NCBI RefSeq assembly: GCF_964204645.1
Contig: NC_134027.1
Coordinates: 18,810,560 to 18,874,559 of the forward strand
DNA: 64,000 nt
Origin: Tubulanus polymorphus
Lineage: Eukaryota > Animalia > Nemertea
Reading direction: 5' to 3'
Positions 208 through 56,038 of this stretch are shown piece by piece (position 1 is the stretch's first letter; each line of letters starts with the position of its first letter). The notes under the pieces are model-generated. The model was not told the DNA's origin. It made no database searches and was given only the letters and a program-made list of their open reading frames with translations. The position numbers were made by a program, and so were the translations under genes.

Positions 208-318
208 ACACAAGAAAACTGTAAAGCGGGCTCATGAAATAGAAATAGAACATCAGAAACAGCAAGTTTAAACATCAGATAATTAGACTTCAGTAACTGC
301 TGACAATATTTCGCAATC

Positions 319-20529: not shown

Positions 20530-22489
20530 CAGTTGTTGAATATTATTAATCATTGAATATTTTCGAAGTTTTGTCGGGTTGAGTAATATACTTTTGCCAG
20601 CTAATCCCGTCGTATTTGTATGCGTTCTGGGATTAAATACGTTTCCAGCGGTGTGTATAAATCATTCGTTCATACTGAACATTTTCAACTGAATGTCCAT
20701 ATTCTGGCCAGTGATATGTCGCTCGATCGTTATTTGGTCAAATTTGGTCATATTTATTAGCTAGCCTACCACTGATATCGGTTTCGGAGAACTTCCATTT
20801 CCGGTTAGGTTTTTTCGTAGGGAATTTCGGAGCATTTCAGCTCCAACCTATTACTGTACTTGGTATTTATATAAGGGTAATCCACGCCTGGGTTTGTCGG
20901 TATGTCGGTTCGTCGGTTTGTTGGTATGTCGGTTTGTCGGTATGTCGGTTCGTCGGTTTGTCGGTATGTCCGCACGTAATGTCGTAAGATTCAATCAGTC
21001 CTATATTGGCAGATTAATTACAAATACCAGTCCGATGTGATAAGTCTCTGCTTGAGTTATTTAATGCTATAATGGACTTGAGTTTCCAGTTCCACAAAGC
21101 TGACTGGAACCAGCTGAAAGAAGACTAAAATCTCAGATCTCTGATAAGATTCAACTGGATATTAACCAAGGCGAGGATGCTGAAACTCTATGGACCCGAT
21201 TCAAAACCACTATCTCCTGAGCTCGATAAATACCAACATACCTAACAGATAAGCCGTCAAATCAGAAACGTACCGTGGTTTAACTCATCAATCCGGAAGA
21301 AGATGAAACGTAAATGCAGGCTATATTCCCAAGCCAAGAGGACTGGAAACTGGAAGAATTATCGTCAACACCAGAAAGTTGTCTGCAGGGAAATACGGGA
21401 GACTGAGTGGAGATATCTAAATTCAACGATCGGAGAGAGCTTAGCACAAAATAACACTTAACCGTTCTGGCCGTATATCAAGCGGAAAACACAAGACAAC
21501 ATAGGGGCAGCCCCACTTCGCAGAGGCTCGGAACACGTGAGCGATGCGAAAGGTAAAGCCGAGCTAACCGCTAAGCAATTCAAATCGGTCTTTGATAATG
21601 ACAAATCCCCACCACCAGTTATCCAACCTCAATAAGAAGAGATCTCACAAATAACAGGAGACAACAAAGACGTCACCAAGCTGCTGAAAAACATAAAGGT
21701 AAGCGGCCCAGACGGTATACCAAATCTTGTGCTACGGAATTGTGCTGATGAATTAGCACCAGTACATCTACCAACGCTCACTGGACACTGGTACCCTACC
21801 CCACGATAGGCGAACCGCCACCGTATCGAGTATCTTCAAAAGCGGAGACAAGCACGACTCCGGGAACTAAAGGCCGGTATCTTTTACAGTAGTCACCTGT
21901 AAGTTCCTCGAACATATCATATATCGACATATCATGTGTCACCTAGAAGCCAATAACATCTTAACCCTTCTCAACCATGGTTTCAGAGCAGGTTTCTCGT
22001 GCGTAACCCAACTCCTCGCGATCGTCAAGTAATGGTGGATGAGCTTCAATGCAAAGAAGTGTCAGATTCTGTCCATACAGAATAAGCGCAGCTATCACTT
22101 CACTATCAGCAACTCTATCTTCAAACAGATTACCAGCTCACTGTACCTTGGCGTCCAGATTACTGATAACTCAAATGGCATACCCATACTAACAAAATCA
22201 CTAGTAGAGCCAATTCCACATTAGGATTACTCCGCCGTAATCTAAGAAGGTTTCCACAGGAACAGAAACGTACAGCCTACATTGCTTTGGTTCGCTTAAT
22301 TTTCGAATACGGATCCGTTATATGGGACCCATACATGAAATCGGACATTGAGCAGTTGGAAAGAGTCCAACGGAGCGCAGCCAGGTTCATCCTCAACGTC
22401 TACCGCTCTAGAACACCGTGATTGATGCACGACCGAAATGTTGGCAACCCTTGACCTGCCAAGCCAAGCTACACGGCGGAGGAACCAGC

Positions 22490-24540
22490 GCCTATATTGA
22501 TTCAATTTCTACGAGTTCTGTTGTAAATCCATACGATTTCAGTTCGTTGCGTAGCTTTTATGTTTCTGTTAGAAATTCCCTCATCACATTGAAACAAATG
22601 AATTATATGTCAGAAATTTGGAGCAGTGATTTGTTATTTTAAGTTACTAGGCGTATCCCAGTTGATAAACGTTCTAAATGGAATGATTTTGTACGTCGAA
22701 TTTCTAGAACTACTTATCCCACTCTATTTGATTTCAAGATTCTGTCGAGGCAGATTTTGGACCATTCTCGTTGCAAAATAAACCTAGGAAATCTAGTAAT
22801 CCTGTGAATGTCGTTAATGGTCCACGGAGACCACATGTATTTAATTCCAGAGCATGAACCTATAAAATGTATCGTTTGTTCGGATAGCCATTCTTTGAAT
22901 AATTGCAAGGCTTATCAAGATAAGTCTGTCATTGATCGATTCACAATTGTGAAAAAAGTATCGTTTATGTATCAATTGTTTGAAAACAGGTCATTTTCTT
23001 GCTGCCTGTGCTTTGCTATACGGTGCAGAGAGGCAGCTTGCGGAAAATGCACCATACCGTGTTACATCTTCCGTCCTAGAGTAGTCAGATTCCAAATAGA
23101 TCCATGTTGAATATTCCGTCGTCTGATAAATCGCGTCAAAATTAGTCCTTAGAACGTGGTGATTCTGCAATTATCCAAAATGCAATTTCAACTGAAACTT
23201 ATTGTAACAATGTGTTTTTCAGGTGTTGCCGGTCACAGTTCAGGGAAAAAAAATGGACGTCGTATTGCCACACATGCTTTGTTAGACTTCGGTAGCGATG
23301 TTACCTTAATTCATGAAGATTTGGCTGATGAGCTTGGGTTACCAGGTGAAAAACAATTATTTACAACAAGTACCCTCAATTTTAGTGTTGCACGTATATC
23401 TAGGTGTGTTACTTTTGCCGTTCGTGGCAATGATCCAGATTCGAAAGATGTTAACATTTCGCGAGCCTAGACTACTCATAACAATATAAATTGTCCCGCT
23501 CAGACGTTTTCTGAGGTTTTTCTCAATAATCTATCACATTTGAATGGTTTGTCCTTTACGGACTATTCGCCTTGTCAGGTTAAGATTCTAATTGGTGCAA
23601 ATGTGCCTCAAGTGCACGTCCAATTAGAGGTTAGGGAAGGCACCTCCCAGCAGCCTGCAGCAATAAAAACCAGACTCGGTTGGTGTTTGTTTGGACTTTA
23701 GATTTTAGCGAGTTACCAATTGAACGTACTTTAGGAATTAAGTGGAATGCTCAACAGATTGATTGTTTCGTTTATAGACCGGCAATTAAACCTGTCACAC
23801 CTACCAAGCGAGGGATTTTAAGCGCTGTATGTTCTGTGTTTGATCCTTTGGGATTTTTATCTCCATTTACGCTAAAGGCTAAATGTTTGATTCAGAATAT
23901 GTGGCATTGTGGTTTAGGTTAGGATAAAAAGATATCCGGTGATCTTTTTGAAACTTGATGCGCGTGGGCAAGACGAGTTGCTATTATTATACGATTTGAG
24001 AATCGCTCGACATCATTTGTTCTTGTCGCCTTCTGCCGAAACGTAGCAGCTAAATCTGTTCTGTGATGCATCGGAACGAGCATTCGGCTGTGTTTGGTTA
24101 TTTGTGTTATAACACGGGTGAGCTTTTTTCCTGTTCATTTCTTGCTTCTAAAACGCATCTTGCTCCCGTTAAACATCCTTGAGATCCGTGATGTTGTTTA
24201 TTGGACCGATTCTCAGACTGTTATACGGTATATATACAATGAAAAGAAGCGTTTAAAGACATTTGTTGCGAATCGTGTGAGCAAAATTCGTGAAAATTCA
24301 TCACCTAAGCAGTGGAAGTACGTTTCTTCAAATTCAAATCCCGCTGATGATTGTGCCCGCGGACTTTCTGCGGCCACCTTAACATCATCTCATAGATGGT
24401 TCAATGGCCCAGAATTTCTGCAACTAGCTGAAACTAGTTGGTCACCTGAACCTAATGTTGGTTCTATATCTTATCTAGATGAACATATAAAAGTTGCAAC
24501 AACCGTGAATCGAACTTTAGGGTCTTTTGACTGTGAGGCC
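22490..24540 (+). pseudogene. Heavily decayed BEL/Pao gag-PR-RH fragment
   Basis: CIVCSDSH knuckle, protease ALLDFGSD, FDPLGFLSP, WTDSQ, NPADD; most of RT deleted near 23700; resembles the outer BEL at 44772-56869. Confidence 0.85.
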
Positions 24541-25144
24541 GCTATTGATCTCAACGATCTATATGGACGACTTCCTCAAATCAGTCAAGATAGTTCTTGA
24601 AGCCATAGGGATGTTGTCACAGGTCTCTTCTACAGTTACCGTTGGCGGTTTTCGGCTTACGAAATATTTCAGCAATAGCCGTGAAGTCCTTGCTGCGATG
24701 GCTCCATCTGATGTTGCCATTGATGTCCAGAAGTTACCCGACGGTCAATTACCTAAAGAGCGAGTGCTGGGCGTACTATGGGACGCTGAAAATGATGTTA
24801 TTGGTATAATAGTTCGTGTGTTCGATGCTGCGTTGACGCGACGAATTCTACTGCGATTGGTATCTTCGATTTTCGATCCATTTGGTATCGCCGCACCGTT
24901 TCTTCTCCAAGCCAAGATACTCATTCAACTATCTTGGACTCGAAAGCTTGATTGGGATGCTGACTTACCTGGAAGAAGATGTACGTGATTGGAAGTTATG
25001 GTTAGATGTTTTAAAGTCGTTACCAGATGTTCACATTGTCCGTTGCTACAAGCCAACGGAAGATGAACCCGGTCGCCGCGAACTTCACCTGTTTTGTAAT
25101 GCGTCTACAAAGGCCTTTGGTGCAGTCGCATACTTCCGTTTAGT
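24541..25144 (+). pseudogene. Second BEL/Pao fragment (RT C-terminus to RNase H), left part
   Basis: IYMDDFL, RVLGVLWD, FDPFG, LHLFCNAS; frame continues at 36067 once the Gypsy insertion is removed (AYFRLV|MPDGD). Confidence 0.88.
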
Positions 25145-25762
25145 TGTCACTAACGGGATCTTTGAATTCCACTTGAGTGATAGAATGTTAACAAGCGTCC
25201 ACGAATAAACGAGTCGCAACACACAGAGTTCCTGTCTTCAAAATTACTTTTATTTCACGAACTGATCTCAACGATCTAAAAATTCCTAGCGGTCTCCCCC
25301 ACGGTCCAAAAACCCCAGTATATATAGTCAATTCTCCAACCCATCTCATTAGCGAACGACATTGCCAAAGCCCGTTAATTTGTCGTTAGCGCAACAGCGT
25401 TGCCCATAAAAATATCATTATTCAACCGAAATAATTACAAAAGGACATTATACGTGACAGTTTCCCATAAAAATGTAACATTAACTTTGAATTATGTTCT
25501 TCAGCGGCAGTCGTTGCTCGCAAAAGCAAATACTTACGAGCAACTGACGCGCATTAGTCGTAATTTTCCTAAGGTTCAATCTCAGTACAAAAAGTTATAT
25601 GAAAGCTGACGCTGGAACAAAGTTCGAAAGTTTTATCACGAAAGATGGCACTGTTGAATGAGTTGGATAATGAATGCGGAATAGTTTATGATATCGTTAG
25701 AAGATGGCAGCACTGCCTATGAATTGAGACTGCTGTTGAAACTCAACAATACCACTGTCACA
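25145..25762 (-). repeat. Gypsy-env 3' LTR
   Basis: Minus strand TGTGACAG...GTGACA; TATATATA at ~25319-25326 and AATAAA at ~25249-25254 on the minus strand. Confidence 0.97.
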
Positions 25763-25766
25763 TATA

Positions 25767-25776
25767 CCCCCCTTCC
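25767..25776 (-). promoter_or_regulatory. Gypsy-env polypurine tract
   Basis: Minus strand GGAAGGGGGG-TATA just before the 3' LTR. Confidence 0.88.
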
Positions 25777-26920
25777 GCAAAGGCCCTGTCCTCAGGGACT
25801 AGAATTGGATAATACAAATACAAGTCAAATGTTAAGTAAAAAATGACATAAGGTCATCATGATATGAGACAGGAAAAAAATTTCCATTCATCGATACAAC
25901 TACAACACCATTATGTAAAACATTAACATCCGATAATAATGGTTGCTTGGATACAGAGTCATAAATCTTGACTAATGGCCCTTAAGAGTAGCAAAGCATC
26001 ATACCGGCGCGCAACGGCAGATACAGCATACGCCATGGATTACAAGCGACCAACACAACCGTACAAACGGTAAGTAATTATTTTCTTATACATTATACTT
26101 ATATGTTTAAAATGAACAATATCTATAAGAATATAAGATGAAATCCACAATCCATGTGCATAATATATAATAGTAGGTATCATTATACGAAAATAGGTGA
26201 ACACAGCACACTATACCAAGACATTAAACACATCACAAAGAATGTTTGTTTGTTTTTTTTTTTTAACACATATACGTTATACACCTACATCATTATATAT
26301 CGTAAATACCAATAACCATACATGATTATAAGAGACACTATCAATTAGATATCTAATACAAGCCATTAAATGTAAACATTACAGATATAACTTCATAATC
26401 ACTACCATATCACACGCACATCCTCAAACATCAATTTAATTCCATTACAATAATCACACTACAATTTACGTACATACGTAACTTTTAATCTAAAAGCAGC
26501 CTACATCAGAGTCACGTAAGAGGTTACTAGCACATTACGTGAAGGCCGAACGGGTCATCCGCACCCAGCCTCTCAAAACACTTCTGCACCGCAAGAGCTC
26601 TGATGCTGCCTAAACGCTCGCCTAGATAAATACAATATTCAACATATAATATCATTTCATATTCCACTACAATTTATTCACTCAAGTAAAATACGCAGGC
26701 CTGACCTACACTATTACAAACATACAATCGAAATCGAGTACTCATTGCGCCTCTTCATTATAATATGCCTCTTACTATGACAAATATATTTATTTATCAT
26801 CCTTTATAATCCATTTCATATCATCGTCTAATTATCGAAACAATACATATAGACATTATCGCCTATATCGAAATCATCCCCCCTCCCAAAAATGTACGGA
26901 ATGAACCTCTCTACAACATC

Positions 26921-29632
26921 TTAAGGTCTTGATAACAACGAGGGGTACAGTAAATTGATGCCCCTCTGGGGTACCAATGGATTCGGAACACTCGGTGGCG
27001 AAGGAACCCGCGGGGATATAGCCGGAATGTTTCTATTAGTGGCTGCTTCGTGAGCCGCAATCTCGGCCTCCCAATCAGAATCATTGTTTCTGCGGAGCCT
27101 TCCGAGGCACCGTTCCTTTTTCACGGCCGGATCCCTCAGGAAATCCGCAATGCCTTTGACTGGAATCCTCGCTCCATTAAATTCAATCCAAAAAAACTGG
27201 CAAAAATCCTCCGCTAGGATCCTCCTTACAGAACTAAATTTAAGCCAAGGAATTGTGACCTTCGAAGGCAAATCCATCACCTTCTGGCCATCCACTATAA
27301 CCTCACTGTACATCGAAAATCTAAGTAATAGCGAAAAAGGACCATACAACCCCACTATTTCTGGATCTGGCAACATAAGACAAGAATATTCTATCTCTGT
27401 CGGATGATATGGACAATCGCCCAACGGTATCATAATCGACTCATTAACATTACAGATCTCTAAATAAATAACACAATGTAAATCAGAACGGTCAACACTA
27501 CTCCACGGAGAGCAACATCTCAGGATCGCGCGAATCAACCGAACGATATCCATGATCAAGACCCGTAAGACTAGAAAGGAACCCAAAACAAATATAACTT
27601 CCAACATGGGAATATCTGAAAGGTCAAATCGTTCGGTCACTACTTTAACTAAAACCGTTTCGTTGGCACCCCTATCAAGAGAATCCAGCGTTAGTTCATA
27701 CGATTTATTTGAAACAACGGTAAATGCCTTCGCTAGAGGCATGGCAGATGCCACCGCCATCATCCCCAAAACCTTCCTGGTTTTAATGAAGATAAAAAAA
27801 CACAATAGCATGCTAGCCGAAGACAGAGCGATGGCCACTATATTTAAGACACCTGGTGTATCGGAAATTGTCCATTCGAAGTCTTCGCGAGACTCGTCTG
27901 ACTTAGCGGCCAAAGCATCCGCCTTCGATGCATACATAGCGGTGTCATTCTTAATGTGATATACCATCCGTTTAAAATCCAAAGAAAACTTCTTATCTTT
28001 ATCAACTAGACCGGACCAGTTAGCCATGTTTAACTTAAAATGAGGGAGTTCCGTTTTTATAGGATCTGTAACCGTAGTGCCCCCAAAAATATTATCTAGC
28101 TGTTCCCGGTTATAAATTTGTGATACCACCGGAAGATTCATGCTATAATATTTTACAGGTGCGACATCACCCGCACAAGCCGTAATTCGTGGGCTAAGTT
28201 CAAAAGTATTAGACGTTAATCGGCACTTGCACGGCACTGATAACAAACAAAACAAACAACTTTTAATTGCTTGGACTGGTTTCCCTGGACAGGTTAAATC
28301 CCATGTCGCTGGCTTTCCCGACATCAAGTATAAACTGTCTTTGACCTGCACTGCGCCTTCGAACAACGCAGACGTCGGCTCGTATCTGATATCACACAAT
28401 TGCGATACCAACTTAGGCTCGTCCCTATAAATCGCCAATGCACAACTGGGAATATTTCGCGACTTCATCGACATCGCAGTCGAACAAGATTTCAGATATT
28501 TTCCTGAGCAAGATGAATAGAATTTGGACGAAAGCTCAGTATAAAACTGGCCATCGTCAGTTATACCAAAATAATCAGGTAACCCAGTTAACAACGTACT
28601 GCGAGTCGACGAGGAATTGCAAGGTACAGGAAAAGCCATCACGTTGTATAAGCCGAAGAAGGCGTTGGTCGAGGATAATGGGATATTAATTGTTATATAC
28701 AAATTATTGTCTGTCTTAGTGAATACAATATCTTGGGCCTGATAATAAAACCCTAACTCGTTATGCTGGATGGTGAAACCAACAAATTTGGCCTGTAACT
28801 CCTCTCGCACGTGTTGCAAAACCCTTTTTAAATCTTTTGGGGATACAAACTTCATGGGTAGATAGCCCTCTAAAACAGTCTGAGTTGCCAAAAGCCATTG
28901 TTGTGTGGTACGTGTTAAATCTATCATGGACTGATAGTCAAACATTAATTGTTTGATAACTAGTAAAATTAATCTATTGTAATAATTTTGGTTTTGAAAA
29001 TTAGACGCAACATCTTTCGCCAACTGGTCCATATTTCTAGAGTTATTCTTTACCCCAGCGACGACGTTGGTTATGCGAGCATCCGCAGATGACATGTACG
29101 AAGTCAGGTCGTCTGAAATCGTTTTTATTTGTTTCGTATTTAGCTTAGCCATATTTTCCACGTCAGTGATGTGCTTCGAAAGCTTTGCGAGATCCTCATC
29201 GGTCGCTAAGCCAAAGAGGTTTTTCATGAACTTTCCCATAAACGGGGCTAAAGCTCTCTTCGGGCGTCTCGACTTGGTTATCTCGGCTTTAGTTATAGTT
29301 ACCGGAATGAGATCTTTAATCGTATTAATATCTTTGACTATCTGACCAACCAATTCATTATGGTGATCCCTCATAGATGACATCAAATTGGAACCGACCT
29401 TACACATTTCATCCCCGCCTTTATGAAAATCACAGTCCGGAATTACGGCCTTATATTTCGGCACTTGCAAAAAGGGGACTACAAAGGTGTGCTTCCACGC
29501 ACTCGCACCATTGTCCACCACACCGATTTTTTGAAGTAACACGCCATATCCTGGGCGTATTACGGTGTCGGTCGCTAACGATCCCTGGATAAGAATCATA
29601 ACTAGTGTGGTCCCTGAAAAAGTACAGGACAC
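26921..29632 (-). CDS. env: Envelope glycoprotein, F-type class I fusogen, with long C-terminal extension (903 aa)
   Basis: N-terminal signal-like segment; furin site RRPKR126 then ALAPFMGKFMKNLFGLATDEDL, matching the errantivirus-Env/baculovirus-F pattern R-x2-R-x6-G-x3-K-x3-G-x2-[D/T]-x2-D; heptad region; Cys-rich region; TM at about aa 594-616. Confidence 0.9.
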   Translation of the reverse strand: MSCTFSGTTLVMILIQGSLATDTVIRPGYGVLLQKIGVVDNGASAWKHTFVVPFLQVPKYKAVIPDCDFHKGGDEMCKVGSNLMSSMRDHHNELVGQIVKDINTIKDLIPVTITKAEITKSRRPKRALAPFMGKFMKNLFGLATDEDLAKLSKHITDVENMAKLNTKQIKTISDDLTSYMSSADARITNVVAGVKNNSRNMDQLAKDVASNFQNQNYYNRLILLVIKQLMFDYQSMIDLTRTTQQWLLATQTVLEGYLPMKFVSPKDLKRVLQHVREELQAKFVGFTIQHNELGFYYQAQDIVFTKTDNNLYITINIPLSSTNAFFGLYNVMAFPVPCNSSSTRSTLLTGLPDYFGITDDGQFYTELSSKFYSSCSGKYLKSCSTAMSMKSRNIPSCALAIYRDEPKLVSQLCDIRYEPTSALFEGAVQVKDSLYLMSGKPATWDLTCPGKPVQAIKSCLFCLLSVPCKCRLTSNTFELSPRITACAGDVAPVKYYSMNLPVVSQIYNREQLDNIFGGTTVTDPIKTELPHFKLNMANWSGLVDKDKKFSLDFKRMVYHIKNDTAMYASKADALAAKSDESREDFEWTISDTPGVLNIVAIALSSASMLLCFFIFIKTRKVLGMMAVASAMPLAKAFTVVSNKSYELTLDSLDRGANETVLVKVVTERFDLSDIPMLEVIFVLGSFLVLRVLIMDIVRLIRAILRCCSPWSSVDRSDLHCVIYLEICNVNESIMIPLGDCPYHPTEIEYSCLMLPDPEIVGLYGPFSLLLRFSMYSEVIVDGQKVMDLPSKVTIPWLKFSSVRRILAEDFCQFFWIEFNGARIPVKGIADFLRDPAVKKERCLGRLRRNNDSDWEAEIAAHEAATNRNIPAISPRVPSPPSVPNPLVPQRGINLLYPSLLSRP

Positions 29633-29663
29633 ATGATGAGTACAACGTGCTTAGAAATTGGAA

Positions 29664-32600
29664 CTACTTCCGTCGTTTGTCCTTTCCTTGCTTCCGAAAT
29701 ATCTCCAAGGGCGTTTTATCAATAAAACTATCTTCGAATTCCCATGTGCAATCCTTCATGCCATAACCCTTCCATTTGACTAGAAATTGTTCATTGCCCC
29801 CTTTGTTAAAACGCGATTTCAAGATCTTTTCTACCGTATAGATATCATCTTCATCTTCCAAATTATCCCCGGAATCATCAGAATCGGATTGACCCCTCTC
29901 ATCCGCTTCGGGGTCAGGTAACGATTCGTTCTTATCTGATGGTAAATCGACTGGTCTGTCCCTTGGGTCTACGTATAACTTCATTCGATTACAGTGAACT
30001 ATTTTCGGAATATCATTACTCTTTCTCGTATGAACGAGTTTATAATTCACTGGCGAAGTCTGCTGTAATATCTTATAAGGTCCCAAATAGTGGTGCACGA
30101 ATTTCTTACAATGTCCTTTCGGGACGAAAGGGTTGTAAAGCCAAACTAATTGACCGACTTGAAAATCCGGTTCCTTACTACCCCGATCATAATAGCCTTT
30201 CATACGCGCTTGCGCTTTTTCGATATTCTGTCTAGCTATCTCATGAACGACCTTGATCTTGCTCACAACATTATCATAATATTCTTTATAGGAACCTGTC
30301 AAATCGGGTGTAGTAGAGAGCAAGGTCACATCGATCGGCAAAACTGCCTTCCTGCCATAAATCAATTCAAACGGCGAATATCCAGTGGATTCGCAAATAG
30401 ACGCGTTATGAGCAAACGTGATGCTTGGAAGGAAATCTGGCCAATCTCTATGATGTTTATCCGTATATTGAGACAGACTGTTGCAAATATTTTTGTTGCC
30501 TCGCTCAACTAAACCATCCGCTTGGGGATGATATGCAGACGTTCTGATTTTAGACGCGTTGCATAATTTGCATAATTCGTGTATCAATTTCGCGTTGAAA
30601 TTCGCACCTTGATCTGTTAATAAAGTTTTAAAACACGAATGTACGCAAACTATTTTATCAAATATGACTCGAGCGATTGTGATAGCGTCGATTTCTTTTA
30701 ATGCAAATGTGTGTGTCCATTTGGTTAAATATTCAGTACACACTAATATATACTGGTACCCTTCGTATGATTTCTTCAAGGGCCCTAATATATCCATAGC
30801 TATTCTATCAAACGGTCCACCTACTTTGATGGGAATCAATGGCGCTTTAGCTGATTTTGGAGGTTTCTTCCTCGTAGCACAATCTTCACAACTTTTAACC
30901 CAATAATCTATGTCTTTATACATACTATTCCAAAAGTATCTCTGTCTCGCTTTATGCAAGGTACGTGAAATGCCAAAATGCCCACTCAGTGTATCGTCGT
31001 GTAGCGCATAAAGTATTTCTGATCTTAATGGTTTCGGAATTACTAATTGATGACAGACGTTCGCCCCATTTACCCATAAATGATGCAGAACACCGTTTTC
31101 ATCCAGATAGTAATCTGGACTAGATATAACGATCTTTCTAGCATATTTATCGACCTCTGGTAGTTCTTCCTTTAATAAATAATTAATCATCGGACGCAAA
31201 TCATCATCTTCCATTTGCATCTGTAAAAGTTCCTCTGGTTGTAAGGTTATATTCTCATCTATAGTGCCCTTAGGGTCTACCCCATCTCTTTGAGGTATCT
31301 CCTCATTACCACCATCAGTATCATGTTCCTGAGTATTAGGAATATTTTTAGGAGTCTCTAAAGCATAGAGACCACTAGTTCCTAGTTGTAGGTTCATTCC
31401 GTTCATTCCATTGCGTGTATTATATTTCCCCTGTACATTTTCATTAATCCCTATTTCAGTTTCATTTATCTCTTCTTCATTTTTATTTATCCCCATGGGG
31501 TACAAGGTGTCTGTGTCACGTCCAGCGTTGACCACAGCCTTGCAATCATTTTCATTGGAGCTATTACTCCTTAATATATCCTCAGCGCTTAATTCATTAT
31601 TATTATTAGTTATCATTACGCGTGCGTCATCGCGCGCGTTATAGGCATCAGGAGGCGATTCAAAAGATAAGGAAAAACCCTTATTGTTAATATCAATAAT
31701 ATCATCTACACATCCACACTGAAAATCACAAGTACAAGTTTTACAATCATTTGTTTTTTCATTCATTTTACCACCAATTTCAATTTGAAACGGATATCCA
31801 TCCTCGTTACTACCAATAATTGTTGGGATTGAATATACCGGTCTCGACAAAGCGTCTGCATTTAAATGTTTCTTCCCCGCTCTATGAACAATATCAAAAT
31901 CATACTGAGACAATTTCATTGCCCAGCGAGCTAAACGACCGTTCGGATCTTTCATAGTCATTAGCCATTTCAAGGCACTATGATCCGTAACTACTTCAAA
32001 TTTCTGGCCATACAAATAGGGCTCGTATTTCTTTACACCATAAACTACCGCTAAACATTCTTTCTCACTGACAGTATAGTTTTGTTCGGCTTTATTGAAT
32101 AATCGAGTCCCATAGCATATAACTCGCTCTGGGTCTTTTCCTTGAGAAAGAACGAATCCAACGCTATAATTGCTAGCGTCAGTGTATAATATGAATTTTT
32201 CATTGAAATTTGGATATGCTAAGACTGGAGCTGTAGTCAAAATTTGTTTGCATTTTTCGAATGCCTGTTGACATTCCTCGGTCCAATTAAAAGGTTTACC
32301 CTTCTGAGTTAAAGCCGTGAGAGGTCTGATTATTTCGGAGAAACCCTTCACAAAAGCCCGATAATAGGACACAAGCCCAACAAAACTACGTATCTGTTTA
32401 ACTGTTTTAGGGGCTTTGTAGTTGACAACAGCCGAAATTTTTTCGGGGTCAACCTTAACACCTTCCGGTGTAACAATATGACCTAAGAATTTCAATTCTT
32501 TCTTCCCAAATTCGCATTTTCTAGACTTCAGCCTTAAGCCAGCCTGTCTAAGTCTTTCGAAAATTTGCCTTAAGTTATCCAAATGATTTTGCCAACTGGA

Positions 32601-34211
32601 GCCAAAACATATTATGTCATCTAAATATACAAGACATATATCGTACGTTAGTCTGTGTAAAACCCTTGACATTAATCTAGAAAATACTGCAGGGCTAATA
32701 CTACATCCCATAGGTAGAACAGTATACCGATATAAACCACGCGGTGTTATGAAACTAGTATAATCCCGACTCTGAGGATCAATTTCGATCTGATGAAAAC
32801 CCGAGAAAAGATCTAAACTGCTATAAATAACCGGCTTTTTCTGACCTAACTTACTCAACAATGAATCAATTAATGGAAGTGGATAATGATCTTTACGCAT
32901 TCGAGAATTCAAGGCTCTAAAATCTACAACGAACCGATATGTAGAGTCCTTCTTCTTAACCAGAATACAAGGACTACTCCATTCGGACGATGATTCTTCA
33001 ATCAATTTCATTTCCATCATGTCGTCTAATTGTTTTTCTAATTCCGTTTCTAAAACAGGAGCCAATCGATAGGGTCGTGATTTAATTGGTGGCCCTTCAA
33101 TTTCAATTTTTGGTGTAATTAGATTTGTACGGCCAATTTCTCGAATATTATTAGCAAAAACGTCCCTGAATTCCATGCATAAATTCATTAACTCAATTTT
33201 CTGTACATCAGTTAAATCTGAATCTTCTAAATCGATATCAGGACTACCCGGTAATTCATCAGCGGATAAAAACGGTTTAGCGGTCTGTTTAATTTCCAAA
33301 CCATTCACTGTTACAATTTGATTCGACGAATCTACTTTCGATTCCCCATTATTTCCGCTACATATATCAAAAGCAGGTTTTCCTTTATCACCAAATTGTG
33401 GCAAGAAAAATGCTAATTTTTGATCCGAATGAATAATTATATCATCATCAGTGCAATTCAACACGAGCATCGGTACTGTATTAGCCGTTACTGTGCATAA
33501 TGATTTACCAACCAATAATTGATCATGGTATTTGTGCAATAAACCAGGATATCCCTCTATCATTCCAGTGGTTCCGTCTGGAAGTGATTCACATAATTTA
33601 ACCGGTAGAATAACTTGTGATAATTTTGGAATAGATAAATCAGTCATTACTTTCAATTTTACAGCACCACACATATTATGGATTCCGTTTATAGCAACCG
33701 AAGTCTCACCCTTTATGAAAATTCGTTTGTCTTCAAAACTAATCAAAACTTTATATTTTTCCAGAAAATCTACACCTAAGATAATATCTTGAACCAATCC
33801 TGGAACCACATAGAATTCGTGAGAAAATGGTTTCCCGGAGACCTCGATCGTTAATTCTACAATACCGGCCAAGCGAAATGAATCACCCTTGACAGTGTGC
33901 GCATTTGCATATTTTCCTGGAATTAGCGAAGGCTTTTCATTCAATGAATCATACAGTGATTGGCTAATACAACTAACACACGCGCCAGTATCAACAAGGA
34001 AACTGGTGGAATTACCATGAATCTTTCCAGGAACTGCTAATGCAACAGTTGCTAAAATTGGAATAGAATTAATAGTCTGATCGTTTGTACTGGAAGTAAA
34101 GCCTGGAAATATTTCGTTCTTTATCAGTTTACTCTTACCACAATGAGATGGGGATTTAATTTCTAATGGCTCGGAATCATCCCCTAAAATCCGGGCCTGG
34201 GGTTGTTTCCC
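29664..34211 (-). CDS. pol: Pol polyprotein PR-RT-RNaseH-IN-chromodomain, reached by -1 frameshift
   Basis: Frame is open upstream of the ORF-track start and includes protease FLVDTGA (~33990); RT YLDD; RH TDAS; IN H-H-C-C, DILGP, TDQG, VER, GPY; C-terminal YTVEKIL...FLVKWKGY...TWE. Confidence 0.96.
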   Translation of the reverse strand, partial: GKQPQARILGDDSEPLEIKSPSHCGKSKLIKNEIFPGFTSSTNDQTINSIPILATVALAVPGKIHGNSTSFLVDTGACVSCISQSLYDSLNEKPSLIPGKYANAHTVKGDSFRLAGIVELTIEVSGKPFSHEFYVVPGLVQDIILGVDFLEKYKVLISFEDKRIFIKGETSVAINGIHNMCGAVKLKVMTDLSIPKLSQVILPVKLCESLPDGTTGMIEGYPGLLHKYHDQLLVGKSLCTVTANTVPMLVLNCTDDDIIIHSDQKLAFFLPQFGDKGKPAFDICSGNNGESKVDSSNQIVTVNGLEIKQTAKPFLSADELPGSPDIDLEDSDLTDVQKIELMNLCMEFRDVFANNIREIGRTNLITPKIEIEGPPIKSRPYRLAPVLETELEKQLDDMMEMKLIEESSSEWSSPCILVKKKDSTYRFVVDFRALNSRMRKDHYPLPLIDSLLSKLGQKKPVIYSSLDLFSGFHQIEIDPQSRDYTSFITPRGLYRYTVLPMGCSISPAVFSRLMSRVLHRLTYDICLVYLDDIICFGSSWQNHLDNLRQIFERLRQAGLRLKSRKCEFGKKELKFLGHIVTPEGVKVDPEKISAVVNYKAPKTVKQIRSFVGLVSYYRAFVKGFSEIIRPLTALTQKGKPFNWTEECQQAFEKCKQILTTAPVLAYPNFNEKFILYTDASNYSVGFVLSQGKDPERVICYGTRLFNKAEQNYTVSEKECLAVVYGVKKYEPYLYGQKFEVVTDHSALKWLMTMKDPNGRLARWAMKLSQYDFDIVHRAGKKHLNADALSRPVYSIPTIIGSNEDGYPFQIEIGGKMNEKTNDCKTCTCDFQCGCVDDIIDINNKGFSLSFESPPDAYNARDDARVMITNNNNELSAEDILRSNSSNENDCKAVVNAGRDTDTLYPMGINKNEEEINETEIGINENVQGKYNTRNGMNGMNLQLGTSGLYALETPKNIPNTQEHDTDGGNEEIPQRDGVDPKGTIDENITLQPEELLQMQMEDDDLRPMINYLLKEELPEVDKYARKIVISSPDYYLDENGVLHHLWVNGANVCHQLVIPKPLRSEILYALHDDTLSGHFGISRTLHKARQRYFWNSMYKDIDYWVKSCEDCATRKKPPKSAKAPLIPIKVGGPFDRIAMDILGPLKKSYEGYQYILVCTEYLTKWTHTFALKEIDAITIARVIFDKIVCVHSCFKTLLTDQGANFNAKLIHELCKLCNASKIRTSAYHPQADGLVERGNKNICNSLSQYTDKHHRDWPDFLPSITFAHNASICESTGYSPFELIYGRKAVLPIDVTLLSTTPDLTGSYKEYYDNVVSKIKVVHEIARQNIEKAQARMKGYYDRGSKEPDFQVGQLVWLYNPFVPKGHCKKFVHHYLGPYKILQQTSPVNYKLVHTRKSNDIPKIVHCNRMKLYVDPRDRPVDLPSDKNESLPDPEADERGQSDSDDSGDNLEDEDDIYTVEKILKSRFNKGGNEQFLVKWKGYGMKDCTWEFEDSFIDKTPLEIFRKQGKDKRRK

Positions 34212-35149
34212 GGCCTGAATCTATTAGGATTGTCGTTGGAACGATTACCGAAATTATTGTTAGAATTATTAAACCGTCTATCCGGCCGATAACTACCGTT
34301 CTGCCTAAAACAATTACGTTCGTGATGCCCAACTCGATTGCATCTACCACAAACTACAGATCCGGAAGCAGATCTGAAATTTCGTGGCGGCAGGTTATTA
34401 TCCTGCCTCCGGACCTGTACCTGAAGTCTCGAGACTTCCCGGCTCAAATTCCTGATTTCATCCCTGAGATCCGAAATTTCATTTCGGTTCTCAGTGGATG
34501 ATATGATGCCGGCAATTGGAGGCGGTTTCGCCTGCAGCGCCAACACGGATTCATACAAGCGCGCGTATTGTTCGGCTTCGTCCATAGTTGTTGGTGATCT
34601 AGATACGACAAACGCTCTCAAATTGTCCGCCAAGCCATTGATAAATAGGACCATTAAATCATGATCGTTCTTTTCAAGAGCCGCCGAACGTATTTGGATG
34701 TCTTGAAGATAGACGTCCAACGATTCCCCCGGTAATTGTTTTCTGTTCATTAAACTTTGCTCACGCACCCATTTCATTGATCCAGAATCGAATTTCTTTT
34801 TGAATTCCCTTTCAAAGTTGTCAATATCTGATAAGATACTATTCGCCGTTGTCTTAACGGTTGCGTCTTTTGACTTGCTTGCCTCGACCACGGTCCAATA
34901 CCAAGCCGAAGCAAGTCCATCTAAAAACAGCCCCACTGCTTTAAGTTTCTTTTCGTTGGTCCAGCCCATGAAAGTAGAATATTGGGTGAACCGCCGCCAC
35001 CAAATATTAGCGTCTTCGCTTACCGTACCGGTAAACTGTGGCGGTTGTAGACGAGTCATGCCCATTGGCTTATCGTCAATTTTGGCTGTCATTTCAGCTA
35101 GTCTATCTGCCAATGCGCGGTCCATTCCAGACCTCGTTTCGACCGGCAT
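34184..35149 (-). CDS. gag: Gag (capsid plus one CCHC knuckle), about 321 aa
   Basis: First ATG at 35149 (MPVETRS); PPQFTG capsid start; MHR-like KQLPGESLDVY; CGRCNRVGHHERNC. Confidence 0.93.
   Translation of the reverse strand: MPVETRSGMDRALADRLAEMTAKIDDKPMGMTRLQPPQFTGTVSEDANIWWRRFTQYSTFMGWTNEKKLKAVGLFLDGLASAWYWTVVEASKSKDATVKTTANSILSDIDNFEREFKKKFDSGSMKWVREQSLMNRKQLPGESLDVYLQDIQIRSAALEKNDHDLMVLFINGLADNLRAFVVSRSPTTMDEAEQYARLYESVLALQAKPPPIAGIISSTENRNEISDLRDEIRNLSREVSRLQVQVRRQDNNLPPRNFRSASGSVVCGRCNRVGHHERNCFRQNGSYRPDRRFNNSNNNFGNRSNDNPNRFRPGNNPRPGF
34205..34211 (-). promoter_or_regulatory. -1 ribosomal frameshift slippery site G GGA AAC
   Basis: XXXYYYZ heptamer in the gag frame inside the ~36-nt gag/pol overlap; pol is in the -1 frame; GC stem starts 7 nt downstream. 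Confidence 0.88.
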
Positions 35150-35420
35150 ACACAAATTCAATCAAATAATTTCTAGGTTCTTCAATATTAAGTCAATTAA
35201 ATGTACGATAGACCGAAGGAGACAGCAAAATATTCGGTCTATCCACAGAAAATTGTTCTACGCACACGACGAAATCAAAATTAAATAACAAGTATTGTTC
35301 AATATTTACCAAAATCCATTTTCCGTGCGTTTTCTCGAGTTCCTACTTCCTGTGTTGTTCCAGCGAATTATCTTTGTTTCCGTTGGTTTGTTAAATAGCT
35401 CGATACCTCACTCAAGTAAA

Positions 35421-35442
35421 ATGCCCGCCAGGTTCTCCACCA
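35421..35442 (-). promoter_or_regulatory. Primer-binding site, tRNA-Ala(AGC)-like, bulged
   Basis: Minus strand TGGTGGAGAA-CCTG-GCGGGCAT versus the recalled tRNA-Ala complement TGGTGGAGAA-T-GCGGGCAT; 2 nt after the LTR. Confidence 0.75.
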
Positions 35443-35444
35443 TT

Positions 35445-36062
35445 TGTCACTAACGGGATCTTTGAATTCCACTTGAGTGATAGAATGTTAACAAGCGTCC
35501 ACGAATAAACGAGTCGCAACACACAGAGTTCCTGTCTTCAAAATTACTTTTATTTCACGAACTGATCTCAACGATCTAAAAATTCCTAGCGGTCTCCCCC
35601 ACGGTCCAAAAACCCCAGTATATATAGTCAATTCTCCAACCCATCTCATTAGCGAACGACATTGCCAAAGCCCGTTAATTTGTCGTTAGCGCAACAGCGT
35701 TGCCCATAAAAATATCATTATTCAACCGAAATAATTACAAAAGGACATTATACGTGACAGTTTCCCATAAAAATGTAACATTAACTTTGAATTATGTTCT
35801 TCAGCGGCAGTCGTTGCTCGCAAAAGCAAATACTTACGAGCAACTGACGCGCATTAGTCGTAATTTTCCTAAGGTTCAATCTCAGTACAAAAAGTTATAT
35901 GAAAGCTGACGCTGGAACAAAGTTCGAAAGTTTTATCACGAAAGATGGCACTGTTGAATGAGTTGGATAATGAATGCGGAATAGTTTATGATATCGTTAG
36001 AAGATGGCAGCACTGCCTATGAATTGAGACTGCTGTTGAAACTCAACAATACCACTGTCACA
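35445..36062 (-). repeat. Gypsy-env 5' LTR
   Basis: Identical by eye to 25145-25762, offset exactly 10300. Confidence 0.97.
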
Positions 36063-36066
36063 TAGT

Positions 36067-36920
36067 AATGCCCGACGGTGATCTACACTGCAGTTTCGTG
36101 ATGAGTAAAACCCATGTAGCTACATTAAAGATGATGTCAATTGTCCGATTCGAACTTCAAGCTGCTGTCCTCGCTGTTCGTTTGGCTGAAGCTACCAAAA
36201 AAGAAGTTACATGTCGAATCGACGAAACTGTCAACTGGATCGATAGCAAGGTCGTCTTAGGCTACATAATGCATGAGAGCAGGCGTTATCATGTCTTTGT
36301 TGCTGTGAGAATATCCGAGATCCACGACGCAACTACACCTGATCAATGGCGCAACATACCGGGCTGCGAGAACTCTCTGCAGAAGATTGCTCAAGAGGTG
36401 TTTCGGCTGCTAAGTTAACAACGGATTGTACTTGGCTGACTGGTCCAAGTTTTCTATGGAACTCCGTCGAATCATGGCCTGAAGACATTCCGACAGAAGA
36501 GCTCGTCAGCGTTGATGACCCTGAAGTAAAGAAGAACGTTTGTCTTATATCCGTTAGACGTGCTGTACTGCCAGATCCATCCAAGAAGTCGTCCTGGGTC
36601 GAGTATATACGAATTACAGCATGGATGCTTCGCTTTATCAACAACTTCGTTTCTACACACCGAAAGGTTAAGTTGGAAGTTTGTCGTGATGGTCCGTTAT
36701 CTGCTAGAGAATTCAACGAGGCTGAATTGTTGATTTTAAGTACCCGGTACTGATAAGCGACAGAAGTTCCCTATGGAGTATGCTGCCTTGAAGTCTGCAA
36801 AAAACTACCGTCGTCAAGCAAGCTGCTGCAACTAGGTAGATCCGGAATCAGATGCATCAGGTGTGATGAGAGCTCGTGGCAGGCTGATGAACGCAAATAT
36901 ACTGCGTGCACTACGGATCT
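36067..36920 (+). pseudogene. Second BEL/Pao fragment, right part (RNase H and linker)
   Basis: VMSKTHVA...RFELQAAVL, WIDSKVVL, QWRNIPG, WLTGPSFL, RITAWMLRF. Confidence 0.88.
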
Positions 36921-38174: not shown

Positions 38175-39032
38175 CACCAGGCAGTCGCCGATGGGCTTGG
38201 GATACAGTTGCTGGGGTTTTTGATAGTGTATTTGTGTTTTCATTCGTTATTCTGCAATAAATCCGAGAAAAAACGTCTTGGTACTGATACGTTTAGAAAG
38301 ATAATGGCCGCTGGATCCACACACGGCGACCTCACAAAATACTGAACAAACTTCGTTTTTCAATCTAAAATCAAAACTTTTATTTTATATGACACTTACT
38401 AGTGATATGACAGTTATATATCCTATTATTCCATCCGACTGTGAGACACTATCAATTTGTGAAACGTCTTTAGTAATATAAAAGAAAAGGTAGTTGACGA
38501 AGCGTGAGCGTATAGGAAAAACTTTACAGGCGTTGAGACGGCAACACTAGGTCACACGGGCACCTGCTACAAGTATTCCCCTTCTATATTCAAATAAAGC
38601 GGGATTTCGTTATGACGTCACTCAGCGGTTGAACGACGTTCGGTGACTAGTTAGTTGCCGTCTCAACGCCTGTAAAGTTTTTCCTATACGCTCACGCTTC
38701 GTCAACTACCTTTTCTTTTATATTACTAAAGACGTTTCACAAATTGATAGTGTCTCACAGTCGGATGGAATAATAGGATATATAACTGTCATATCACTAG
38801 TAAGTGTCATATAAAATAAAAGTTTTAATTTTAGATTGAAAAACGAAGTTGGTTAGTGTTTTGTGAGGTCGCCGTGTGTGTGTGGAGCCAGCGGCCATTA
38901 TCTTTTTAAACGTATCAGTACCACCAAGACATTTCTTCTCGGATTTATTGCAAAATAACCACTCAAAACACAGATACACTATCAAAAACCCCAGCAACTG
39001 TATCCCAAGCCCATCGGCGAGTGCCTGTGGTG
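38175..39032. mobile_element. Foldback element with ~370-bp inverted arms
   Basis: 38178-38545 is the near-perfect reverse complement of 38652-39028; ~105 bp spacer. Confidence 0.88.
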
Positions 39033-45538: not shown

Positions 45539-48500
45539 TCAAGAAGACAAACATTGGCTATTGGCTACTGGACGAACATATTCGCCCTTTCGAGTTTTAA
45601 TTTTGACGGTCCTCACCCCATCCTCATGCGGATAAACCTCCAATATACGGGCAAGGGGCCATTTACCACGGGGCAAATTCTCGTCGATGAGAACTACAAC
45701 GTCACCGATACGAAGATTTCTTACCTCAATTTTCTGACGCTTATTTAGAGTTTGCAAATACTCCTTGGTCCATCCCTTCCAGAAATGGTCAGCTTTTACC
45801 TGAGCCTGCCGCCATTTTTGACGACTATTAACGACAGAAGAACTTACCTCTGCTGGAGGGTTCACACTAACAGCGCCCCCGTAGAGGAAATGACTGGGCG
45901 TAATTGCTTTAAAATCGTTTGGGTCTGAACTACTGTACGTTAAAGGGCGACTGTTGACCGCAGCCTCGACCTCGATTAGATAAGTACGCAAGACACTATC
46001 TTTCACTACCTGACCTTTTAAACAGGACTTAAGGGCGTGTTTAGTACTTCTTACCAACCTTTCCCATACTCCTCCAAAGTGTGGGGCCTGGGGAGGGGAA
46101 AATTGCCAATGCACGTTCCTCTGCAACGAAAAGTTATGTACCTTCCCCTGATTCCAACGAGTTATAGCATCCCGTAATTCTCTTTCCGCACCTACAAATT
46201 TGTGCCGTTATCACTATATATATGCTGCGGCTGTCCCCTACGACCAATAGAATTTCTTAACACCAGAATGAAGTCATCGGTTTCCAAGGATTCAGCCAGC
46301 TCTAAATGAACAGCTCTGGTGACCAAGCAGGTGAACAAACATCCCCATCGCGTTAAACGACAACGTCCTTGCTTAATCTCTATAGGAACGAAATAATCAC
46401 AACCAGTAAAACAACAAGGCTGAGTGTAACCGGAAACCCTGGACGAAGGAAGATCAGACATCATCGGAACCTCAGGCCACAAATAATAAAGACGACAATC
46501 AGAACAGAGCCTACGCGTACTATATGCCATAGAACGCGCTTTAATGGGCCAATATTTTTGACGAACCTCCGATATTATCTGCTCCGGACCACAATGAGCA
46601 TTACAATCGTGAATACTTCTAAGGATAAGACGTGTCACATGATGTCCAAAGGGCAGAAGATTCTGATGTTTTGCCTCAAACGGCAATTGAGCCTTTGACA
46701 AGCGTCCTCCAACTCTCAGAAATGAACCATCGCTAAACGGGGCTAACGATTGAATTGTACTCATCTTAGACACTACAAACCCTGATGCCAAACACGCAAT
46801 TTCATCTGGAAATTTCTCAGACTGGGCAAACTTAACTAGACAGTCTTCTGCTTGATGGACCTCGGAAGGAAGCAAAAACTCACTAGGACAAACTTTGGGA
46901 AACTGCAATCGACTTCCTGCAAATTTACGAACAGCTCGTAGTATCCCAGCAACATGACACTTTAGTTTTATCCAGCAAGAAAACCGATTAACATCGATAA
47001 GACCGGTAAGATCTAAGTCACTTACGACCAATTTCCGTACGACATCCACATTGTTCACACACTTTGTCCTGCGAACATTCACGTCATCCTCTGAAATAGA
47101 CCCTGAAACACCAAGTTGATCAGGCCACATGGATTTATCTTTCAAGAATGCAGGACCAGAGAGCCAAAAATCCGAATTACAAACCTTCTAGGCCGACATT
47201 CCACGGGTACAAGGATCTGCTGGATTCAGATTTGTGAGAACAAACTGCCATTGATCAGGTGATGTGCAACTATGGATCTCCGACGGACGATTGGCCACGA
47301 AAACTTTAAACCGGGTTGTAAAGTTGTTGATATACCGTAGGACCGTCATAGAATCAGTCCAAAACATGACTCGAGAAATATGCAACGAGCTGAGCTCCCT
47401 TGTCAATGTTTGGTACGGACGAACAGAGAGGACAGCTACCTCCAGTTCCAACTTAGGGATAGTTAACCTCTGCCGAAACGCCACCAGAGAAGAACATGAA
47501 CCTCCGGAACCAAACGAACCACGTAAATAGCATGCGGTAGCAAAACCACTTTCTGACGCATCCGAAAAGAAATGAAGCTTCACACACTGGGGGTGAAATA
47601 CTAACGCAGGATGATACCTAGGAACTTTAAATTCACGAAGAAACTCCAGGTCAGATAACCAGTCGGTCCATTTCGACAATAAATCATCACTTAATTCATC
47701 ATCCCAATCCAAACCAAATTTCCAAACATCCTGCATCAAAGTTTTTGCGCGAAAAGTGAAAGGAGCGAGAAACCCGATTGGATCAAAGATGGAACTAACC
47801 GACCTAATCACACAATGCTTTGTGGGGGGTCCCTCCTTGTTAAACGATTTGAATACGAAACTATCACGTTCACTCCACGTTCCATCGAACTCCTAGGGCC
47901 CGCTCGACGGGTAAGTTATCCAAGTCCAAATAGGTTTAGCACGTTTCGCCTTGTAAATCCTAGACAAAACCTCCCTCACATTACTCATCATCTACATAAA
48001 AATCATTTAAGATGCTATCTGTACATAAAGACGAACAAAAATCCTGACTATCGATAGCTGACCGTTGCAGGGCATAATGGGCGATACAAGGGGAATCGGC
48101 CGCTCCAAAAATAGAGTCGGGTTCAGAATCCTGAGTCAAATCATCCTGCCACAAAAACCTCCTCAAAGAATCTGAATCATCCTCTGGGACCCGTACCTGA
48201 TGAAACATGACCTCAATATCAGATACCATGGCGACCGAGTTTAAACGAAAACGCTGTAAAACTCCAAACAAACTGTTGAGTAAATCAGGACCGGTCATCA
48301 ACATGCTATTTAAGGAAACACCCTTACATTTGGATGCAGCATCAAAGAGTACACGGGGCTTAGGCTTGTTTGGGTTAATAACGCAATGATGTGGAAGATA
48401 CCAAGTCCTATTAGAAGTACGAGTAACCTCATCAGGCGTCAAATTTCGAGCAAACCCATTCGAAATATAACCATTCATGGTATCGCAATACCCAGACATA

Positions 48501-50735
48501 AGATTGGAATCCTTACTCAACTTCTGTTTCAAATTCCTAAACCTCACCTTAGCCACATGGCGATTATCAGGCATTTGGAGATGTGGATCCCGCCAGAGCA
48601 TCTATCTCATAATGACCATTGACTATCTTACATGAACTATTTAACAACTCGAGACTTTTTGTCTTCAACTGAATCACCTAAAGTAGGGGAAAACAAATTA
48701 GTAGACTCCACCTTCCAGAACAGCTCCACTTGAGCCTTCTCTTCCTGAGCATAAGCCTTAGCCAGATAACTAGATACGCGCCCTGCTCATCTGAACCTCC
48801 CATAAGACTCAAACCAAGAGGGGTTTTAATTGCGAATAGATAAGAATCATCAGGACCGGGACGAACCTCCAACTGCAGGTGTGCCCTTTGAACATTGGCA
48901 CCAATCAATATCCTTGACAAATGTATGACAAATCTCATCGAGAGGGACATGAGTGAAATAACTAAAATCTCTTTTAGTCTGTGACGAACAATTAAAGTGC
49001 CCATGACGTGTTCAGGCGCCAACAACATTAATAAGTTGGTTACCATACTGGCTGCCCTTAGAAAGTGATACTAACCGGGAGCGTTCACTACCCTCGGAAT
49101 TAAGTGTACATATTGTGAGTTCACCTTCCCTACCTTTTAAACCCAGTTCCCGCGCTAGGTCCGATTCAATGAGACTTACATTGCTAGCAGAATCTAGTAA
49201 AGCATGTGTGGAAATCTGCCTTCCGTTTCTACCATATACTATAACCGGTAACATTTGAATTTTTTCCTTCGAAGACGATTCTGACAACACACCAATCTGA
49301 TTCACCGCGGATTTAGGTTTGTCTGGTTCGACGGTAGTTTCTAACTAAGTTTTGGTCTGAACAATCGCAGGTGGGCGTGCAATGGGTGAGGCCCATGAAC
49401 GGTGTTGTATGGTGTTTTTTACCGCAGTTTCCCTGCATGTACCCTTCGAAGAACAGGTTGCAATAACATGACCCGAAAAAAAGACAATTGATACACAGGT
49501 TATGACCTTTTACAAACGGAAACCTTTCCGAGACTGACTTAACTAAATATTCTTTACGCTTTGAAAGGTGATGCAATTGTTTACACAGAGGACAAACATT
49601 TTGTTTACTATTAACATTATTACATGAACCAACTGTATTTCTAACACTGACGTTCTGTGTAGCTTGTTTTTTTATTTGGAATCACAAATGGACCACAGTC
49701 TGAGTCAACACAATCTTTTAACCAGTTCATCATTTCAACTAGCGACGGATTTTGATACCTTTTTACGTAATCATTCCATTTTGATCGTTTTTCCATCGGA
49801 ATACGACGTGATGCCTTTAACACGACTTCACCGCTACCTCTATTTCATACTGATAGTTTAAACGAATCAACGTGGCTACACAATCCCGGACTTCGATATA
49901 AAGGTCTCGAAGGGCTATAGAGTCATAGGAAGGTACTTGGCCCCCACCTACACCTAAAGCATCAATATACGCCCTACTTATACCTACACGATGTGCAGAT
50001 GCAGATTTCAACTCTTTTAAACAATCTGCATAATTGGTCGCCGAGTATCCCATTCCTTGAATCAGTTTCTTGGCTTCGCCCATGACGTGGGATTGCAACA
50101 AATCCATTCGACGGACATCACTGATACCCGGCCTGTCGTGGATTTGGGTATGAAACAATTCGATGAACCTCGGCCACAGTAAAGGGGATCCATCGAAAAC
50201 GGGGAATTCAACTTTCGGCAAGTCTCTGTCAACATATAATTGGGATAGAGCTAACTCGATACTTACATCATCTCCGGATGACTGTTTCACTGCCGGATAC
50301 CAACTCGTCGATCCAACCGTCGATATCGGAAGTGACTGACGAACTGGACTATGATATGGACGCGGAAGACTGCGTAGACTGTGCCGTTGACCGAGTCGAC
50401 TCTCTCATAGACTGCGTCGTTGCTGTAAATGCTGTCGCGTTCGGATTCAGCGGCGGTGACGATTCAGCAGTCTTCTCCGCAAGGTCTTGGAGAGCTTTCA
50501 TAGTTTTATCGTGGTACGCCTCGAACCAGGTTTCTTCGTTTTCGATTTCGTTCTCCTCCAGCTGTACAACAAATTCGCCCTGTACTTTCTGAAGAGTGTT
50601 GAATTGCTTCTTAATCTTTTGAGCCAGGATATCGACCCCTGGACGCGATACTGTTTCCACCCTGGCGATACTCTTCGTGAGCCAACCCGCTAACCCGTGA
50701 CTAGCCCGCGATTTCCTGAGCAGGTCGGTAGACAA
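45539..50735 (-). pseudogene. Outer BEL gag-pol, many stops and frameshifts
   Basis: FDGSPLLWPRF, ALLDSASN, WYLPHH, FYVDD, FSDAS, WTDSM, GCDYF, SDNGTN, FGGVWERLV. Confidence 0.92.
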
Positions 50736-51013
50736 TGGGTTGACGGACTTGTATTCCCTCGGTTCCTGACGAAAGCAACTCAACAAACACACGTTCGAAC
50801 TATATGGCATTTCCATTTATTACTCCCCAAAATCTCAAATTCACATGATATGATATGTAACCATGAAACTAGTACAGTGAAGATTATATATAGCTGACGC
50901 GACACGTGACAACTTGTATTCATAAGATATTCACGATACAACATGGACATAATACATCAATACTAACAGTACTGTATTTGAGTTTAACAAATCAAGTATA
51001 TTTACAAACAGTT

Positions 51014-55938: not shown

Positions 55939-56038
55939 GTTGACAAATTTCAATTTTCTGAATTCTTCGAATTTGTTGAATTAACTCTTCGTCTTCTTCT
56001 AACGTTTAACGATTAACTGGTAGCATTTCTCACTTCTC

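Follow-up and report, generated by a model that had tools for sequence, protein, structure and literature searches.

An intact, recently inserted Ty3/gypsy element of Tubulanus polymorphus whose F-type env carries a C-terminal module with a predicted matrix-like domain

A stretch of 64,000 nucleotides from contig NC_134027.1 of Tubulanus polymorphus (positions 18,810,560 to 18,874,559, hereafter the window) harbors a 10.9-kb Ty3/gypsy element on its minus strand at 25145-36062, whose gag, pol and F-type env are all free of stop codons. The analysis established the anatomy of this element, its F-type ectodomain and the conservation of a C-terminal module located behind the F membrane anchor. 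We consider it somewhat probable that env encodes a class I F fusogen together with a second membrane-anchored protein, which has a predicted matrix-like domain and a likely budding motif for the endosomal sorting complexes required for transport (ESCRT). The coordinates of all features are collected in Table 1.

The module comprises 230 to 310 residues and was detected in all nine intact env families of the genome. A profile of 12 module sequences retrieved 516 clusters among 1.84 billion proteins, and among the 150 matches listed the same ectodomain was observed in all 51 long ones, and the only named members among 30 proteins that were looked up (28 Env and 2 Pol) are from Mytilus. Searches with the module in Pfam, PDB sequences and the ESM Atlas gave no match. 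Directly behind the F anchor, basic residues, hydrophobic residues and an AxA motif follow one another in 64 of the 74 sequences aligned, of which 9 come from the genome and 65 from the 150 listed profile matches. The rule behind this count, formulated only after the data had been seen, applies to 5/74 behind the last anchor, and shuffling satisfied it no more than 14 times in 500. This segment is followed by a piece rich in S, T and P (0.34 vs 0.20) and then by the second anchor.

The predicted fold of the cytosolic domain best matched the matrix (M) protein of Borna disease virus, the M proteins of paramyxoviruses and pneumoviruses, and filovirus VP40, over 97-99 of its ~105 residues, with matrix proteins of five virus families occupying all top ranks in two structural searches and recurring in a third. 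A homodimer prediction of this domain scored 0.00, but it was run without an alignment and on an uncertain fold, and speaks neither way. The late motifs, of types known to bind ALIX and TSG101, lie outside the module profile. The 3,302 tail residues contain 43 YPxL and 12 P[ST]AP motifs, the 27,351 ectodomain residues one and none, respectively. Such a motif is optional (four of the nine families in the genome, 42 of 90 tails), and in this element it sits in a disordered cytosolic tail, as is characteristic of an ESCRT late domain at the sequence level. In VP40, too, late motifs lie beside the matrix domain.

The ectodomain matched Pfam Baculo_F (E 4.6e-15), and Env resembles a solved fusion protein by sequence and the F proteins of respiratory syncytial virus and human metapneumovirus by fold. 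Its furin site and fusion peptide, its heptad helices and its F-type fold and anchor are those of a class I F fusogen. An earlier sequence-only reading of this DNA had proposed an F-type env, to be refuted if the third open reading frame (ORF) showed no structural similarity to F proteins; this ORF does fold like F, and the proposal holds. Among 56 env homologues, the furin motif was present in 37 and the fusion-peptide motif in 48. In a comparison with a relative of ~90% identity, each env region shows more synonymous than non-synonymous changes (80:48, 23:14, 17:11 and 14:8), a pattern indicating purifying selection across all regions. Word-index protein searches with env returned no protein in one case and one protein in another, and IMG/VR returned none. 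The first ATG of env leaves a signal peptide of only nine residues, and a spliced leader exon would complete it. The predicted donor is the sole donor-like site found in the leader; the leader ATG and donor are both kept in three of four relatives (88-93% identity) and the donor in all four, while the acceptor also persists in relatives at ~90%. An acceptor-like site ≤20 nt before an early ATG was observed in 6/9 families.

We propose that Gag-Pol would be made by a -1 frameshift and Env from an mRNA spliced from the short leader exon, after which signal peptidase would cut behind the F anchor and free the second protein. The matrix-like domain of the latter may coat the membrane from inside and bring capsids and F trimers together, LYPxL or PSAP would recruit ALIX or TSG101 so that the particle is pinched off, and the furin-primed F would fuse it with a neighboring, probably germ-line, cell, where the chromodomain may steer integration toward methylated chromatin. 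The env module would thereby supply budding functions that Gag is without. No late-domain motif was found in the Gag of the element, and among nine Gags YPxL or P[ST]AP occurred in none and PPxY in one; to our knowledge, the Ty3/gypsy capsid has no retroviral matrix domain.

Three other explanations were weighed. It appears rather unlikely that the element is an ordinary ancient errantivirus in which Env merely has a long tail with several membrane passes, the cytosolic domain being a trafficking or folding module whose beta-sandwich came to resemble matrix proteins by convergence and YPxL a sorting signal, given that matrix proteins of five virus families lead two structural searches and return in the third and that two types of late motif are enriched in the same tails. 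It is still less probable that a true matrix homologue is kept fused to F as a three-pass protein without any signal-peptidase cut. The single ORF in all 51 long homologues agrees with such a protein, as does the weakness of the middle hydrophobic segment, which gives no hydropathy peak at the 1.6 threshold and is modeled at low confidence (predicted local distance difference test ~40); however, the recurrent basic-hydrophobic-AxA order argues for a cut, and the S/T/P-rich piece resembles a mature luminal N-terminus. That the element now moves only intracellularly, with env intact merely from its young age, or that the identity of its long terminal repeats (LTRs) is an assembly artefact, is highly improbable. 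The element is known here from genes and not from particles, and near-identical LTRs are found too in deleted copies without env and integrase; against this stand the purifying selection in all env regions, the same env architecture in eight other families, the separate haplotype of each LTR pair and the one pair that differs by a base.

The reading of Env as fusogen plus matrix-like protein may extend further, though we put this forward tentatively and with slightly more doubt than confidence. A widespread retrotransposon lineage of marine invertebrates would carry a one-ORF cassette for exit and entry, made up of F and a membrane-tethered homologue of the Mononegavirales matrix protein with late domains, with Env and not Gag recruiting ESCRT; an F-M polyprotein would also exist in chu-like RNA viruses, and therefore Borna, measles and Ebola viruses would have a matrix gene that shares an ancestor with the env tail. 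Whole Env had its top BFVD matches (E 1e-28 to 1e-20) in an abalone herpesvirus protein of 801 aa and in long F-like glycoproteins from the chu-like Hubei myriapoda virus 8, Shayang fly virus 1 and hymenopteran chu-related virus 126, all of them exogenous RNA or DNA viruses, unlike the element. In the search with the domain only, several chu-like glycoproteins were on top (probability 0.85-0.99, with E-values that are not significant), and neither Hubei myriapoda virus 8 nor the abalone protein was among the best 50 matches. We know of no annotated M gene in chu-like viruses. A matrix-like, ESCRT-recruiting second protein in env would be a concrete answer to how capsids obtain an envelope and exit the cell in hundreds of invertebrate elements. 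If true, the Mononegavirales matrix fold would extend to retroelements, with hints as to where chu-like viruses keep M and as to how both F and M arose.

The reverse transcriptase (RT) is closest to Ty3 (E 1.9e-79, versus 7.8e-39 for the murine leukemia virus type), and the element has the order protease (PR)-RT-RNase H-integrase, LTRs with TG...CA ends, a primer-binding site (PBS), a polypurine tract and a short target-site duplication (TSD), as in Ty3/gypsy elements (Metaviridae). The retroviral RT and the surface/transmembrane env of Retroviridae, or true endogenous retroviruses, were not found; what the earlier label called a "retrovirus-like Gypsy element" is a Ty3/gypsy element and not a retrovirus. 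The complement of the PBS matches what we take to be a tRNA-Ala-type acceptor-stem end, and several searches for the gene of the matching primer tRNA found none. The Drosophila errantiviruses gypsy and ZAM have an F-type env, and gypsy has a 4-bp TSD, a spliced env and a -1 frameshift; the element shares these features, with splicing and the frameshift as predictions. Unlike gypsy/ZAM, it has a non-insect host, a chromodomain, a presumed Ala-type PBS instead of Ser, Lys or Leu, and a 909-aa env with an extra module of ~290 aa; infectivity has been shown for gypsy, whereas the element is known from sequence alone. With neither an insect host nor a Ser/Lys/Leu primer, it is not an insect errantivirus.

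Eight more F-env gypsy families with open env of 819-899 aa (L047, L048, L055, L056, L063, L079, L081 and L090) were detected in the genome, some of them with 3-5 copies at 97.7-99.9% identity and with chromodomain-like ends in all six pol ends seen, and the element is not exceptional within its own genome. Chary & Hayashi (eLife 2026, PMC13524379) catalogue 1,512 metazoan Ty3/gypsy elements with an intact env, 1,386 of which are multi-copy. They describe a clade with a chromodomain that is found in cnidarians, molluscs and annelids, and they call the transmission mechanism outside Drosophila elusive; the earlier remark that env-bearing non-insect relatives are little characterised is thus outdated. 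The element shares with these "ancient errantiviruses" the gag-pol-env order, a furin site and a fusion peptide in an F-type env, a chromodomain after the integrase, multi-copy young insertions and a non-insect host. In the operational sense of that paper, errantiviruses are defined by gag and pol that are intact together with an F- or gB-type env, and by two or more copies that are >98% identical; the element has all of these, and also the chromodomain C-terminal to the integrase that marks the chromodomain clade. Given those elements and the eight env families in the genome, the element therefore represents an already described type, while its env module is apparently unrecognised so far. 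The env analysis in PMC13524379 covers the ectodomain between the signal peptide and the first anchor only, and the main text does not contain "matrix", "ESCRT", "budding", "late domain", "cytoplasmic", "splic" or "dUTPase". PMC12583693 describes aliusvirus and herpesvirus class I proteins as unusually long, with nothing further on the module, and no published description of the module was found in the literature covered, which excludes subscription journals and bioRxiv supplements.

Table 1. Features of the element and its insertion site (positions in the window).
Feature	Position	Strand	Details
5' LTR	35445..36062	-	618 bp, TG...CA; TATA-like box near 35626
3' LTR	25145..25762	-	same sequence as 5' LTR, 618/618; AATAAA near 25254
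TSD TAGT, left copy	25141..25144	+	
TSD TAGT, right copy	36063..36066	+	
PBS	35425..35442	-	starts 2 nt past 5' LTR
Polypurine tract	25763..25778	-	adjoins 3' LTR
Decayed BEL/Pao host element, left part	24067..25140	+	resumes at 36067
gag	34184..35149	-	ORF 34184-35161 stop to stop, 325 aa; Retrotrans_gag, one CCHC knuckle
Slippery heptamer G GGA AAC	34205..34211	-	gag frame; predicted -1 frameshift to pol
pol	29664..34220	-	1518 aa; PR, dUTPase-like, RT, RNase H, integrase (HHCC, GPY), chromodomain
Degenerate dUTPase-like domain	33411..33656	-	between PR and RT; Pfam E 0.0015, under cut-off
Chromodomain	29718..29840	-	C-terminal to integrase; Pfam E 5e-13; three aromatic cage positions (as we take them) occupied
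Predicted env leader exon	35309..35319	-	ATG at 35319, donor GT at 35309, phase 1
Predicted splice acceptor	29614..29630	-	pyrimidine tract and CAG, AG ends at 29614; phase 1, in frame with leader exon
env ORF	26921..29650	-	909 aa stop to stop
Furin site R-P-K-R and fusion peptide	29195..29266	-	furin site aa 129-132; hydrophobic peptide
F membrane anchor	27785..27841	-	aa 604-622
Predicted internal signal peptide	27725..27784	-	aa 623-642; basic, hydrophobic, A-x-A
Second membrane anchor	27542..27598	-	aa 685-703; preceded by ~40-aa luminal piece with N-glycosylation sequon
Cytosolic beta-rich domain	27170..27484	-	aa 723-827; predicted matrix-protein-like fold
LYPSL late-domain-like motif	26936..26950	-	aa 901-905, disordered tail

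The slippery heptamer of gag was also observed in two of the eight other env families and as a variant in two more, and a hairpin downstream of it did not rise above shuffles. The chromodomain, the degenerate dUTPase and the C-terminal env module had all been overlooked by the sequence-only reading. The dUTPase-like stretch aligns with a viral dUTPase (E 2e-4) and is matched by 13 of 120 related Pol proteins at E<1e-3. By the motif definitions that we assume, motif 2 (RSG) and motif 3 (catalytic Asp) are lost, and an active trimeric dUTPase is not indicated. As reported in PMC5408684, rotifer elements have a dUTPase at the equivalent pol position, between PR and RT in bdelloid TelKA, Juno and Vesta; TelKA also has an F-type env, though of ~600 aa with one anchor and without a chromodomain, while the dUTPase of our element is without catalytic motifs. 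Pol also contains an Asn/Glu-rich insert of ~200 aa with a small Cys cluster, which separates integrase from RNase H (window 31100-31800, pol aa ~800-1000), and a 1.15-kb AT-rich non-coding stretch (25779-26920) separates env and the 3' LTR.

The LTR search gave at least 49 matches, and 30 loci were examined. A second full-length copy on C8, with open ORFs and 99.1% and 99.5% identity over two stretches, gives the family at least two copies that are >98% identical; of the further loci, two are copies with internal deletions and six are solo LTRs, and a fragment with gag only is present in duplicate. The TSDs are 4 bp long and differ between loci, and the base differences within four LTR pairs are 0, 0, 0 and 1. 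The LTR pair in the window carries two letters that are private among 16 LTRs, which were observed in 0/145 and 0/142 reads of X6, a read set from another sample with the same species label, while two private env letters occurred in 0/31 and 0/24. One heterozygous copy in X6 would yield ~10 reads (flank depth 9.5; P 5e-5), and the family is present there at about 3x flank depth. The private alleles are absent from X6, and the insertion in the window is therefore very likely polymorphic between individuals. The empty allele was not directly sighted; an X1 contig bridging the site was not used as proof, as its alleles are those of paralogous BEL copies. A collapse of the LTRs during assembly was rejected, without long reads, since each pair has its own haplotype and TSD. 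The element is recently inserted and intact, and its family has several independent young insertions. These results uphold the earlier description of a very young, intact element with two indistinguishable 618-bp LTRs, a TAGT TSD and three uninterrupted ORFs among decayed neighbors, and its fears of a collapsed LTR pair or a fixed, single-copy insertion did not materialize.

The two deleted copies, G000:C6:14495331-14502010 (L033) and G000:C3:23278876-23285260 (L034), lack the integrase and most or all of env, have LTR pairs 0 and 1 base apart, and both break within the Asn/Glu-rich pol insert; they were possibly mobilised in trans. Splicing was rejected as their origin, as the breakpoints are microhomologies of 5-11 nt and not GT-AG ends. 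The C3 deletion joint was seen in eight X6 reads, and the X6 allele at 34955 differs from the G000 copy. Two regions, C8:4203000-4222000 and C8:2649500-2668500 (L035-L040), are 99.4-99.8% alike over ~19 kb. Both contain a 5' LTR-gag fragment as well as a piece of LTR in inverted orientation, and they are either a segmental duplication or an uncollapsed haplotype. At window positions 21500-24700 and 36070-36900, X6 shows many fixed differences, with loose ends at 23694-23698, and the two samples thus have strongly divergent haplotypes around the insertion.

The insertion interrupts the Peptidase_A17 region of the decayed BEL/Pao element, whose frame resumes past the site, and the BEL/Pao and gypsy neighbors in the window are fragmented into short ORFs. 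The elements at 304-5614, 45539-55980 and 61103-63565 are several BEL/Pao copies in a decayed state and one gypsy copy that is broken, and this nest of LTR elements would be in line with chromodomain targeting. Telomere repeat types differ between arthropods and other animals; TTAGGG arrays were observed at 3 of the 19 contig ends examined and the TTAGG type at none of the 19, and the observed/expected CpG ratio of the host is 1.07. The arrays and the CpG ratio fit a non-arthropod invertebrate host, in agreement with the non-insect invertebrate first suggested. A long inverted repeat at 38178-39027, with 201-bp arms that are 99% complementary, resembles a miniature inverted-repeat transposable element or a foldback element.
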